Shown: positions 23,496-26,973 of the stretch, piece by piece
Layout: each line of letters opens with the position of its first letter
How positions within the stretch are numbered: position 1 is the first letter of the stretch
Source: Escherichia coli
Lineage (GTDB): Bacteria; Pseudomonadota; Gammaproteobacteria; Enterobacterales; Enterobacteriaceae
Strand: one strand, 5' to 3'
Assembly: GCF_048403405.1 (NCBI RefSeq)
Contig: NZ_CP183129.1
DNA length: 64,000 nucleotides
Notes under the pieces: model-generated
The model's database searches: none
Seen by the model: the letters and a program-made list of their open reading frames with translations, nothing else
Told to the model about the DNA's origin: nothing
Position numbers and translations under genes: made by a program

Positions 23496-23948
23496 TTATT
23501 CCTTACCCAGCAATGCCTGCAGATCCTGCTTCAAAGAAGACATTTTATTCGCGTATTTCTCTTTGTTTTCCGCATCTTCAATCAGCTGAACAATCGTTTC
23601 AGAAAGCGTTTTACCGCGACGCTGCGCAAGACCAGCCAGACGTTGCCAGACAATAAATTCCAGATCGATCGATTTTTTGCGCGTATGCTGGTGTTCCGCA
23701 TTAAAATGGCGCTTCCGTCTGGCCCGAATGGTTTGCTTCATGCGATTGACCAGTTCCGGATTCATATGCTTGTCAATCCAGCCATTTACCAGCACGGGTT
23801 CATTTTCCAGCGAGAGCAACACATCGACGGCTTCCTGGGCGGCACTGGCTTCTATGTAACGGGTGATTAACTCCCCTTCGCGATGCTTCTTCACCAGATA
23901 CTTCCATTTCCAACCGCTTTCAAGATTTTCAAGTTGTTGATATTTCAT
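23496..23948 (-). CDS. matP: Ter macrodomain organiser MatP
   Basis: 150 aa, [66 protein letters not shown]... Confidence 0.93.
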
Positions 23949-24133
23949 AGCGATCTCAATGTTACCGTGTAACTCTTTACAGAATATCAGCTTTTTGGGC
24001 CAGTGAAGAAAAGAATCTCCATCCTGTGAGCTTTAACGCCCATGCCAGGAGTATTGTCGGTGCTTTCTACGTGTGCTGCAGTGCCGGTTACGGTATAATC
24101 GCGGCTTTGACAACAGACTAAAAAACATCAACT

Positions 24134-25894
24134 TTGACCATTACGAAACTTGCATGGCGTGACCTGGTTCCTGATACCGATAGCTATCAGGAAATATTTG
24201 CTCAGCCACATTTGATTGACGAAAACGATCCTTTATTCAGTGATACTCAACCGCGACTGCAATTTGCGCTGGAGCAGTTGCTGCATACGCGAGCATCCTC
24301 CTCTTTTATGCTGGCGAAGGCCCCGGAAGAGTCTGAGTATCTGAATCTTATTGCCGATGCCGCGCGTGCGCTACAAAGCGATGCAGGCCAACTGGTGGGC
24401 GGTCACTATGAGGTTTCCGGGCACACCATCCGCTTACGTAACGCAGTGAGTGCAGATGATAATTTTGCGACTTTAACGCAAGTTGTCGCTGCCGACTGGG
24501 TAGAAGCGGAACAACTCTTTGGCTGCCTGCGCCAGTTTAATGGCGACATTACCCTGCAGCCAGGTCTGGTGCATCAGGCAAATGGCGGTATTCTCATCAT
24601 CTCTTTGCGTACACTGCTGGCGCAACCTCTGCTGTGGATGCGGCTGAAAAATATCGTTAACCGCGAGCGTTTTGACTGGGTTGCGTTTGATGAGTCGCGC
24701 CCTCTCCCCGTCTCTGTGCCTTCGATGCCATTGAAGCTGAAAGTCATTCTGGTAGGCGAACGCGAATCATTGGCTGATTTCCAGGAGATGGAACCAGAGC
24801 TTTCAGAGCAGGCTATTTATAGCGAATTTGAAGATACTCTGCAGATTGTCGATGCGGAGTCAGTAAGCCAGTGGTGTCGCTGGGTAACATTGACCGCCAG
24901 ACATAATCACTTACCTGCACCGGGAGCGGATGCCTGGCCGGTGCTTATCCGCGAAGCAGCACGCTACACCGGTGAACAAGAAACACTTCCGCTTAGCCCG
25001 CAGTGGATCCTCCGCCAGTGTAAAGAGGTCGCCTCCCTGTGCGATGGCGACACCTTCTCCGGCGAGCAGCTAAACTTAATGCTACAGCAGCGTGAATGGC
25101 GCGAAGGTTTCCTCGCTGAACGCATGCAGGATGAGATTCTTCAGGAGCAAATCCTGATTGAAACCGAAGGCGAACGCATCGGGCAAATTAACGCCCTTTC
25201 GGTCATTGAATTTCCGGGTCATCCACGCGCTTTTGGCGAACCTTCTCGCATTAGCTGCGTTGTGCATATTGGCGATGGTGAATTCACCGACATCGAACGC
25301 AAAGCGGAGCTTGGCGGCAATATCCATGCGAAAGGGATGATGATCATGCAGGCGTTCCTGATGTCGGAACTACAGCTTGAGCAACAGATCCCCTTCTCAG
25401 CATCGCTGACATTTGAGCAGTCATACAGTGAAGTGGATGGCGATAGTGCCTCGATGGCTGAACTCTGCGCCCTGATAAGCGCCCTCGCCGATGTGCCGGT
25501 GAATCAGAGTATCGCTATCACAGGTTCAGTCGATCAGTTCGGTCGTGCCCAGCCGGTCGGTGGTTTAAATGAGAAAATCGAAGGCTTCTTTGCTATTTGC
25601 CAGCAACGTGAGTTAACCGGGAAACAAGGTGTCATTATCCCCACTGCTAACATTCGCCATTTAAGTCTTCACAGTGAACTGGTGAAAGCGGTAGAAGAAG
25701 GCAAATTCACCATCTGGGCAGTAGACGATGTAACTGACGCACTGCCGTTATTATTAAATCTGGTGTGGGATGGCGAAGGCCAAACGACGCTGATGCAAAC
25801 CATCCAGGAACGTATCGCGCAAGCATCGCAACAGGAAGGACGTCACCGTTTTCCATGGCCATTACGTTGGCTGAACTGGTTTATTCCGAACTGA
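24134..25894 (+). CDS. ycbZ: Lon-like protease YcbZ (S16 peptidase domain, no recognisable P-loop)
   Basis: 586 aa ORF (TTG start in track), [22 protein letters not shown]...; C-terminal region carries the Lon Ser-Lys dyad context (DGDSAS ... GGLNEKIEG). Confidence 0.88.
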
Positions 25895-25962
25895 TCGGAC
25901 TTGTTCAGCGTACACGTGTTAGCTATCCTGCGTGCTTCAATAAAATAAGGCTTACAGAGAAC

Positions 25963-26481
25963 ATGGTAGATAAACGCGAATCCTATACAAAAGAAGACCT
26001 TCTTGCCTCTGGTCGCGGTGAACTGTTTGGCGCTAAAGGTCCGCAATTGCCAGCACCGAACATGCTGATGATGGACCGTGTGGTCAAAATGACCGAAACG
26101 GGTGGTAACTTCGACAAAGGGTATGTTGAAGCAGAACTGGATATCAATCCGGATCTGTGGTTCTTCGGATGCCACTTCATTGGTGATCCGGTTATGCCAG
26201 GATGTCTGGGCCTGGACGCAATGTGGCAGCTGGTAGGGTTCTACCTCGGCTGGCTGGGCGGCGAAGGTAAAGGCCGCGCGCTGGGCGTTGGCGAAGTGAA
26301 ATTCACTGGTCAGGTACTGCCGACAGCGAAAAAAGTGACCTACCGTATTCACTTTAAACGCATTGTTAACCGTCGTCTGATTATGGGCCTGGCGGATGGC
26401 GAAGTGCTGGTTGATGGTCGTCTGATCTATACCGCCAGCGACCTGAAAGTCGGTCTGTTCCAGGATACGTCTGCCTTCTGA
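25963..26481 (+). CDS. fabA: 3-hydroxydecanoyl-ACP dehydratase/isomerase FabA
   Basis: ORF 25765..26481; the ATG at 25963 gives [45 protein letters not shown]... (172 aa). Confidence 0.96.
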
Positions 26482-26510
26482 TTATAATCAGACAGAGTAT
26501 CAAAAGGCGA

Positions 26511-26538
26511 AACCTCCGCAATGCGGAGGTTTCTTTTT
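26511..26538. terminator. Rho-independent terminator after fabA (between convergent fabA and rmf)
   Basis: aacctccgca-atgcggaggtt hairpin followed by tctttttaa. Confidence 0.7.
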
Positions 26539-26550
26539 AAAGAGACAGAA

Positions 26551-26718
26551 TCAGGCCATTACTACCCTGTCCGCCATGGCTTCTCGCCAGCCTCCCAGCC
26601 ATTGTGACCTTTGATTCAGCGTCTGATAGGGACACATTTCTTTTGAGCGTCCGGCGATGCCGGCCTGATAACCACGTTGATGTGCCCGTTCCAGGCGATC
26701 TCGTTTTTGTCTCTTCAT
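26551..26718 (-). CDS. rmf: Ribosome modulation factor (55 aa)
   Basis: Hand-translated minus-strand ORF: MKRQKRDRLERAHQRGYQAGIAGRSKEMCPYQTLNQRSQWLGGWREAMADRVVMA; absent from the ORF track (below cutoff). The track ORF 26537..26734 is in a different frame. Confidence 0.9.
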   Translation of the reverse strand: MKRQKRDRLERAHQRGYQAGIAGRSKEMCPYQTLNQRSQWLGGWREAMADRVVMA

Positions 26719-26973
26719 GCCTCGTTTCCCTCATACTGGTTTCTGGTGGAAAAGAAAACAGTGATTACTAAATGTGCAATCACAGTTAAGCAATACCGCG
26801 AATCATAACTGCCGTCAATGCGCAAAATTCACGCCACTGTCATATTTGTGAGCTACACGGGCATGTCAGTTGTACAAAAAATGTGAAGAGGAACAACTTT
26901 TTCCGCAAGTTAGAAACAAAAAAACCGCCTCAGGCAACATACCGGAGACGGTTATATTTACAAATCTTTATGA

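Follow-up and report, generated by a model that had tools for sequence, protein, structure and literature searches.

YcbZ of Escherichia coli as a probable reduced LonC-type protease built on a fossil AAA+ module

Does a protein that circulates in databases as an ATPase still have an ATPase site? The question is raised by ycbZ of Escherichia coli, a gene next to matP and fabA that encodes a 586-residue Lon-like protein, which we analysed in a 64,000-nucleotide window of contig NZ_CP183129.1 (RefSeq assembly GCF_048403405.1). The RefSeq/PGAP product name of its coding sequence (CDS) is ‘AAA family ATPase’, papers up to 2026 use ‘putative ATP-dependent protease’, and members of its cluster are also labelled ‘Lon protease family protein’, ‘endopeptidase La’ and ‘Lon-like ATP-dependent protease’. 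We find that YcbZ has the defining sequence and structure features of the LonC subfamily (Liao et al. 2012, PMC3391209), and that its AAA+ module is a fossil, with the fold kept and both Walker A and Walker B dead as motifs. Within LonC its architecture is a reduced one: it is without the helical-hairpin extension (HHE), without a P-loop and with a membrane-type tail. We consider it likely that YcbZ works as a LonC-type, ATP-independent Ser-Lys protease on this fossil module, tethered peripherally to the inner membrane by the tail.

Family, fold and protease site

The protein was compared with Pfam, NCBIfam, the PDB (sequence and profile searches) and PADLOC. Pfam detects AAA_32 (‘LonB-like AAA domain’, E 6e-14, residues 140-225, profile positions 35-124 of 133) and Lon_C (E 4e-10). 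The top PDB sequence match is to the LonC proteins MtaLonC and TTC1975 (E 1.6e-57, residues 140-547; E 4e-115 with a family profile), and matches to LonA chains are confined to the surroundings of the catalytic core (E about 1e-4). No NCBIfam Lon equivalog scores above its cutoff and all Lon models fall far below it, the LonB model TIGR00764 reaching 86 bits vs a cutoff of 516.6 and the endopeptidase La model 31 bits vs 608. A BrxL or defence-associated Lon-like assignment was rejected, with TIGR02653 at E 0.26, a weak PADLOC match to the catalytic motif (E 0.004) and a core-genome setting.

An AlphaFold2 (AF2) monomer model, built on a 59-sequence alignment, has a mean pLDDT (predicted local distance difference test) of 90.1 and a pTM (predicted template-modelling score) of 0.86. 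Foldseek superposes it on MtaLonC crystal structures over the whole chain (TM-score 0.82-0.83 in both normalisations, ~610 columns), on the LonB of Thermococcus onnurineus (TonLonB) at 0.69-0.73 and on LonA at 0.3-0.4. The N-terminal two thirds of YcbZ are therefore a LonB/LonC-type AAA-like module, neither novel nor absent, and the AAA+ alpha/beta plus alpha-lid fold is kept in the model, as judged from the AAA_32 match and the Foldseek matches to the AAA modules of LonC, LonB and LonA.

Nearest to YcbZ is LonC (MtaLonC of Meiothermus taiwanensis and TTC1975 of Thermus thermophilus; MEROPS S16.007; PDB 4fw9, 4fwd, 7ev4, 8k8v), with which it shares the fold (TM-score 0.82), a DGDSA/K dyad with Asp before Ser, both LonC-specific insertions, an AAA-like module lacking the Walker B glutamate, and a soluble chain with no transmembrane insertion. 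It differs from MtaLonC in having no P-loop at all where MtaLonC keeps the phosphate-binding GPPSLGKHE, in having lost the Walker B Asp as well, in an HHE basket of ~240 residues cut down to a 36-residue hairpin, and in its basic Trp-rich C-terminal tail, inner-membrane fractionation and mesophile host; the two are about 25-27% identical. The sister clade LonB, archaeal and membrane-bound (TonLonB, PDB 3k1j), likewise has a DGDSA-type site and an AAA_32-type module (TM-score about 0.7) in a membrane-associated enzyme, but its Walker A and B are intact, it is an ATPase, and it carries transmembrane helices in the alpha/beta subdomain, whereas YcbZ has neither the motifs nor the helices. The paralogue LonA (E. 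coli Lon, protease La), encoded in the same genome, has the S16 protease domain and the Ser-Lys dyad in common with YcbZ, but its catalytic Ser follows a Pro, its AAA+ ATPase is functional and it carries a large substrate-binding domain at the N-terminus. Neither the gene ycbZ nor its family is new; the closest studied members of the family are experimentally ATP-independent, and the annotation of YcbZ is misleading. The LonC clade of 2012 takes in gammaproteobacterial Lon-like proteins, with members from Klebsiella, Salmonella, Vibrio and Yersinia (PMC3391209), of which the Salmonella, Klebsiella and Yersinia entries are possible YcbZ orthologues; our literature search found no paper that names YcbZ and LonC together.

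To follow individual residues we used a family alignment. A first, word-indexed search for homologues listed close Enterobacteriaceae only, and diversity came from searching 1.84 billion representatives exhaustively, which gave 3098 relatives; 137 full-length ones were aligned with YcbZ (n=138). At the protease site, D437, S438 and K481 are invariant in all 138 sequences, and S438 and K481 align to the dyad of MtaLonC. An Asp before the catalytic Ser is a trait of LonB and LonC (PMC9569914). The protease domain is the best-conserved region of the protein, at 60% mean identity vs 16-42% elsewhere in comparisons with distant orthologues, and dyad invariance together with this conservation is the apparent signature of selection on catalysis. 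Two insertions that distinguish LonC from both LonA and LonB (PMC3391209) are also in place. The family columns of the first hold C in 133 of the 138, G in 108, L in 117 and G in 122; E. coli YcbZ deviates from its consensus only once, by a Glu at the first Gly position.

These residues bear on a reading of YcbZ as a pseudo-protease that serves as a scaffold or holdase/chaperone and makes no use of its proteolytic site. MtaLonC is a dual chaperone-protease whose heptamers act as chaperones (PMC13069640), no substrate of YcbZ is known, and the protein gives two-hybrid signals with RNase E (PMC13232886). However, D437-S438 and K481 never vary, the protease domain is the most conserved part of the chain, and the chaperone activity of MtaLonC needs the HHE, which is missing in YcbZ; we regard this reading as very unlikely.

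Decay of the ATPase site

Neither GxxxxGK[ST] nor the relaxed [AG]xxxxGK[ST] nor an hhhhDE Walker B turned up in regular-expression scans of the full 586 residues. A Walker A motif is missing from most proteins by default, so absence alone says little and the homologous position is the informative test. Such scans alone cannot tell a module that is absent from one that has decayed, and we used positional alignment and structure instead. The hidden Markov model profile search against the PDB left the P-loop half unaligned to LonC; the correspondence comes from the family alignment, which is free of gaps over alpha0-beta1-P-loop-alpha1 and includes long homologues with GPSGTGKT, and from the fold match.

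In this alignment G-P-S-G-T-G-K-T of the long forms falls on A63-P64-E65-E66-S67-E68-Y69-L70 of YcbZ, with the Lys replaced by Tyr69, the Ser/Thr by Leu70 and the glycines by Ala, Glu and Glu. The remnant is acidic: it has three Glu, neither Gly nor Lys, and a charge that is negative overall, and in the model it lies between the strand at 58-62 and the helix at 67-80. Over the gap-free stretch the long forms read GQxRA...GYNLFVxG-xxGxGK/R, to whose opening TQPRL corresponds in YcbZ. At the Walker B position, aligned to GGYLILDA of MtaLonC, the Asp is Ser157 and the catalytic Glu is Leu158 in YcbZ. That last position is Glu in 0 of the 138 sequences and Ala in 83, and the whole clade is therefore without the hydrolytic glutamate. 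The YcbZ branch has, to judge from its sequence, additionally lost everything required for phosphate binding. In MtaLonC, sensor-1, sensor-2 and the arginine finger are also reported to be degenerate (PMC3391209).

Across the family the P-loop is canonical (GK[ST]) in 4 sequences, GK followed by another residue in 36 (the type of MtaLonC, GPPSLGKHE), GR in 24, reduced to a lone K/R in 8, without any basic residue in 59 and unaligned in 7; all short forms fall in the class without a basic residue. Classes that retain a basic residue have a mean P-loop charge of +0.75 to +1.25, and the class without one has -1.1. Four long forms were seen to keep the canonical Walker A with the Walker B glutamate still missing. 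The graded loss of the P-loop runs parallel to a shrinkage of the inserted domain that follows it (~240, ~100, 36, then 5-13 residues).

Could YcbZ nonetheless be a true ATP-dependent Lon or AAA+ ATPase with a non-canonical nucleotide site? The AAA_32 match, the AAA-like fold and the database labels would fit, as would the reported binding of ATPgammaS by MtaLonC. Against this, the Walker A lysine and glycines are gone from a loop that has turned acidic, the Walker B Asp and Glu are gone too, and every NCBIfam Lon equivalog stays far below its cutoff. The closest characterised relatives lack ATPase activity despite a better-preserved P-loop (PMC3391209), and cryo-electron microscopy of MtaLonC with ATPgammaS shows just phosphate in the P-loop (PMC13069640). 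We find an ATP-dependent YcbZ scarcely credible. Motif loss and the ATP-independent relatives MtaLonC and TTC1975 point instead to a YcbZ that is probably ATP-independent, and the sequence evidence contradicts its ATPase and ATP-dependent labels.

The initial annotation, made from the letters alone, had reported that YcbZ lacks a Walker A motif, keeps the Ser-Lys dyad, and represents a Lon paralogue without a functional ATPase site. All of this is borne out: the P-loop position reads APEESEYL, the dyad stands in DGDSAS (435-440) and GGLNEKIEG (476-484), and alignment, domain and structure tests agree on the dead site, with no intact AAA+ ATPase module detected and no catalytic residue lost on alignment. 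Its further suggestion that domain search and structure prediction would confirm the absence of an AAA+ module holds for Walker A and B but fails for the fold, which is retained (AAA_32 E 6e-14; TM-score 0.82 to MtaLonC).

On the reading that we prefer, the fossil module would probably still build a ring with an axial entry above the proteolytic chamber. ATP would be neither bound nor hydrolysed at a site with an acidic eight-residue P-loop, Tyr for the Walker lysine and Ser-Leu for the Walker B Asp-Glu. With the ATPase site dead, cleavage would therefore be limited to unfolded or unstructured chains: by analogy with MtaLonC and TTC1975, only substrates already in that state would be cut, after diffusing into the chamber. 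Neither relative has ATPase activity, and both break down unfolded substrates in an ATP-independent way (PMC3391209, PMC13069640).

Reduced insert, axial entry and C-terminal tail

In MtaLonC an HHE of ~240 residues between alpha1 and beta2 makes up a basket that serves substrate recognition and chaperoning, and phosphate binding by the P-loop has been kept (PMC13069640). Residues 81-116 of YcbZ correspond to the site of this HHE and of the LonB membrane-anchor insertion (PMC13069640, PMC9569914). The HHE is not present in YcbZ, the model showing just a beta-hairpin in the 36-residue insert; the basket that MtaLonC uses for substrate capture and chaperoning has been lost. By length class, the insert measures ~240 residues in long forms of ~800 residues (median about 240), ~100 in the ~650-residue class, 36 in the YcbZ class (~580 residues) and 5-13 in the ~550-residue class. 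Between beta2 and the next helix, at the position of AAA+ pore loop 1, lies L128-F129-G130, with G130 in all 138 sequences and L128 in 128. From its position we take LFG to be a candidate pore loop, and its conservation suggests that the axial entry may still be used, passively.

The tail differs between length classes. Over the last 22 residues, short-class proteins average a net charge of +2.5 and 3.2 aromatics vs -0.3 and 0.85 in the long class (Mann-Whitney p 4e-5 for charge, 2e-12 for aromatics), and other short-class tails, such as RWLNWFNRG, RIKNWFNQR and FLSFLRFLKS, are basic and aromatic. Within E. coli YcbZ the most favourable Wimley-White interfacial energy, -6.24 kcal/mol, belongs to the last 14 residues, with the next non-tail window at -2.99. 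No transmembrane segment is predicted in YcbZ, the maximum 19-residue hydropathy of 1.54 lying inside the protease core, and this hydropathy scan rules out an integral membrane anchor. In appearance the tail is like those of MinD and FtsA, a short basic and aromatic or hydrophobic C-terminal segment on an otherwise soluble protein. The MinD tail is KGFLKRLFGG and that of FtsA is IKRLNSWLRKEF; by eye, the tails GFFSRLFGLR, LGKLLRRLF and RIKNWFNQR of YcbZ homologues resemble them. Unlike these, the E. coli YcbZ tail is Trp-rich, interrupted by prolines and without a clean amphipathic helix.

Independent published data place the protein at the inner membrane. A proteome-wide study of sucrose gradients assigns YcbZ (19 peptides) to the inner membrane with high confidence; both replicates put it in k-means cluster 2, its gradient ratio is -1.57 and its profile is like that of integral inner-membrane proteins (PMC7055658 Table S3). 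In a two-hybrid screen dominated by membrane proteins, the piece of YcbZ that a membrane-bound RNase E bait picked up was fragment 565-586 (PMC13232886). The C-terminal tail is also a published ribosome-arrest peptide (PMC8848927), besides being this RNase E two-hybrid fragment (PMC13232886). The basic, Trp-rich tail is most likely a peripheral anchor that tethers YcbZ to the inner membrane.

Several observations pull the other way. ATP independence leans on motifs and on relatives just about 25-27% identical overall, and we found no biochemical data on the YcbZ protein itself in the literature. MtaLonC is reported to bind ATPgammaS by isothermal titration calorimetry despite degenerate motifs (PMC3391209), so that nucleotide binding by an unusual mode is formally conceivable for YcbZ. 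The ring is assumed, the model being that of a monomer. As to the membrane, the big soluble complexes AceE/AceF are also called ‘IM’ (inner membrane) in the gradient data (PMC7055658), and a YcbZ ring of ~400 kDa could co-sediment with inner-membrane fractions; the YcbZ profile is broad, resembling integral inner-membrane proteins and unlike the sharp AceE peak, which argues against co-sedimentation. The E. coli tail holds three prolines and has a moderate helical hydrophobic moment (0.49), and papers, including PMC13232886, list YcbZ as cytoplasmic.

The ycbZ-fabA locus and the role of YcbZ

The ORF is identical to the RefSeq ycbZ CDS. An upstream in-frame stop ends at 24121, which makes the TTG the earliest possible start, and alignments to distant orthologues begin at residue 1-5. 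The leader (24094-24133) is A-rich (TATAATCGCGGCTTTGACAACAGACTAAAAAACATCAACT-TTG) with no obvious Shine-Dalgarno sequence before the non-ATG start, features that suggest weak translation initiation. A TATAAT hexamer lies ~35 nt upstream of the start. A promoter consensus scan of 23900-26100 gave no sigma-70-like site, and a terminator scan of the same interval gave terminator-like hairpins at chance level only. Feature coordinates are collected in Table 1.

Table 1. Features of ycbZ and its surroundings, with positions in the window
Feature	Position	Strand	Residues	Detail	Basis
ycbZ CDS	24134..25894	+	1-586	TTG start, TGA stop	ORF list; RefSeq
N-terminal extension	24134..24247	+	1-38	conserved L-x-W-x-x-L-x-P	alignment, model
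Degenerate AAA-like alpha/beta subdomain	24248..24853	+	39-240	alpha0 with QPR motif, beta1 to beta5	Pfam AAA_32, AF2, Foldseek
P-loop (Walker A) remnant	24320..24343	+	63-70	APEESEYL	family alignment, model
Beta-hairpin remnant	24374..24481	+	81-116	36 residues	AF2, family alignment
LFG at pore-loop-1 position	24515..24523	+	128-130	L128-F129-G130	position between beta2 and next helix
Walker B remnant	24584..24607	+	151-158	GGILIISL	alignment to MtaLonC GGYLILDA
Alpha-helical (lid) subdomain of AAA-like module	24854..25153	+	241-340		AF2, alignment
Lon (S16) protease domain	25154..25774	+	341-547		Pfam Lon_C, PDB alignments, conservation
Catalytic Ser motif	25436..25453	+	435-440	DGDSAS; Ser438 (codon 25445-25447) after LonB/LonC-type Asp437	motif scan, alignment
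Catalytic Lys481 codon	25574..25576	+	481	GGLNEKIEG at 476-484	motif scan, alignment
LonC-specific insertion 1	25598..25621	+	489-496	C489-QQR-E-L-T-G496, after catalytic-Lys helix	alignment; consensus CX3GLX(G/E), PMC3391209
LonC-specific insertion 2	25679..25693	+	516-520	L516-V-K-A519-V520 (phi-X2-A-phi), helix alpha5	alignment to MtaLonC VLEAV; PMC3391209
C-terminal tail, proposed membrane-binding element	25775..25891	+	548-586	helix 553-571, then Trp-rich basic segment	AF2, alignment
Model elements, N-terminal				alpha0 40-50; beta1 58-62; loop 63-66; alpha1 67-80; beta-hairpin 87-103	AF2
Model elements, middle				beta2 117-120; beta3 153-157; beta4 203-208; helical lid 241-336	AF2
Model elements, C-terminal				protease domain 347-541; helices 553-571 and 575-582	AF2
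FadR operator of fabA	25889..25905	+		AACTGATCGGACTTGTT; overlaps ycbZ Asn586 codon (AAC) and TGA stop	site match; EMSA (electrophoretic mobility shift assay) probe, PMC4537474
FabR palindrome	25907..25924	+		AGCGTACACGTGTTAGCT; in the 68-bp ycbZ-fabA spacer	site match
matP	23496..23948	-		divergent upstream neighbour	gene context
fabA	25963..26481	+		conserved downstream neighbour	gene context; PMC4161252

Outside the catalytic and nucleotide sites, conserved residues include Q39 (115/138) and R41 (107/138) of the QPR motif and R277 of the lid (128/138).

The initial annotation had also placed ycbZ in the core genome beside matP and fabA. A 3.2-kb query around the gene matched in 5425 of the 5426 complete E. 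coli genomes, and the region is core E. coli chromosome; its surroundings there are sulA, ompA, matP (-), fabA (+), rmf, pqiC and pqiB. Beyond E. coli we inspected five distant contexts with homologues 31-45% identical (three-class alignment), which cover all three short and middle length classes. In 5/5 fabA is the next gene downstream of the homologue and has the same orientation, with a gap of 53-117 bp, and matP adjoins it in one of the two with an identifiable upstream neighbour. One context (L003, 14-3287, GCA_000222685.2) keeps the E. coli order matP(-)/ycbZ/fabA/rmf(-), which spans 23496-26750 of our window; the other distant orthologues retain just the ycbZ-fabA pair. In E. coli ycbZ and fabA form an operon with an additional fabA-proximal promoter, and the convergent rmf transcript is reported to end before or within ycbZ-fabA in a growth-phase-dependent manner (PMC4161252).

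The end of ycbZ is shared with fabA regulation. The published FadR EMSA probe starts TTT ATT CCG AAC TGA (PMC4537474). Overlap of the FadR site with the ycbZ stop is kept in the 39%-identical orthologue L003 (AAC TGA TCCGACTTGTT), and in L004, a 662-residue form, the FadR-like site makes up the final five codons (VIGVV). With the operator, or in L004 the FadR-like site, lying over the 3′ end of the gene in E. coli, L003 and L004, a DNA operator thus helps to fix the C-terminal residues of these proteins. A strong ribosome stall has been mapped at Pro585-Asn586 of the ycbZ mRNA (PMC8848927). The stall at 25886-25894, where Pro585 (CCG) occupies the P site and Asn586 (AAC) the A site ahead of TGA, shares nucleotides with the FadR operator. 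tRNA-Asn(GUU) normally bears queuosine (Q). YcbZ protein is ~2-fold up in a tgt mutant, which lacks queuosine (PMC9508795), and a link among Q-dependent Asn decoding, the stall and the YcbZ level is possible.

The function of YcbZ, described as unclear in the initial annotation, is still so treated, papers from 2022 to 2026 calling the protein uncharacterised. Loss-of-function alleles of ycbZ recur under erythromycin in laboratory evolution, and loss gives cross-resistance to erythromycin, chloramphenicol, tetracycline, puromycin, EDTA and other compounds (PMC4079197, PMC7686311). A deletion is described as increasing stop-codon readthrough in PMC8848927 and PMC9508795, which relay it from Gagarinova et al. 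2016, the one functional study cited for YcbZ. These phenotypes point to translation and drug susceptibility; the papers on phenotypes and stall (PMC8848927, PMC4079197, PMC7686311, PMC9508795) do not address ATP dependence of YcbZ.

Such phenotypes also admit an active protease whose energy dependence lies in trans, with a separate unfoldase or the translating ribosome supplying substrates, so that degradation in vivo would be indirectly ATP- or GTP-dependent. Genetic links to translation fidelity, as relayed in PMC8848927 and PMC9508795, fit this arrangement, as do the resistance to ribosome-targeting drugs on ycbZ loss (PMC4079197, PMC7686311) and the conserved LFG, whose pore-loop position suggests chains threaded via the axial entry. 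Yet in the contexts examined no conserved partner gene was seen beside ycbZ except fabA (with matP and rmf in some genomes), the AAA-like ring would fill the docking face for a partner unfoldase, and we found no interaction evidence for an unfoldase. We judge supply in trans unlikely.

Taking the energy-independent protease as the preferred reading, we put forward a broader proposal tentatively, as possible if somewhat doubtful: that YcbZ types a distinct minimal LonC branch that swapped HHE and P-loop for a membrane-targeting tail, a peripheral inner-membrane, energy-independent protease whose gene is interlocked with the fabA regulatory region by a FadR operator at its last codon and stop, at the stall. 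If true, this branch would be the soluble-protein analogue of membrane-anchored LonB.

For a core E. coli gene now propagated as an ATPase or ATP-dependent protease, ‘LonC-type ATP-independent protease’ is the better label. The practical value lies in this correction and in sharper hypotheses about a protein whose drug-resistance and translation phenotypes are reproducible: if YcbZ is energy-independent, without an HHE and probably membrane-tethered, its substrates are best sought among unfolded or nascent chains at the inner membrane. For the family, the P-loop series from GK[ST] through GK plus another residue and GR to none shows an AAA+ ring kept as a scaffold after loss of the motor.

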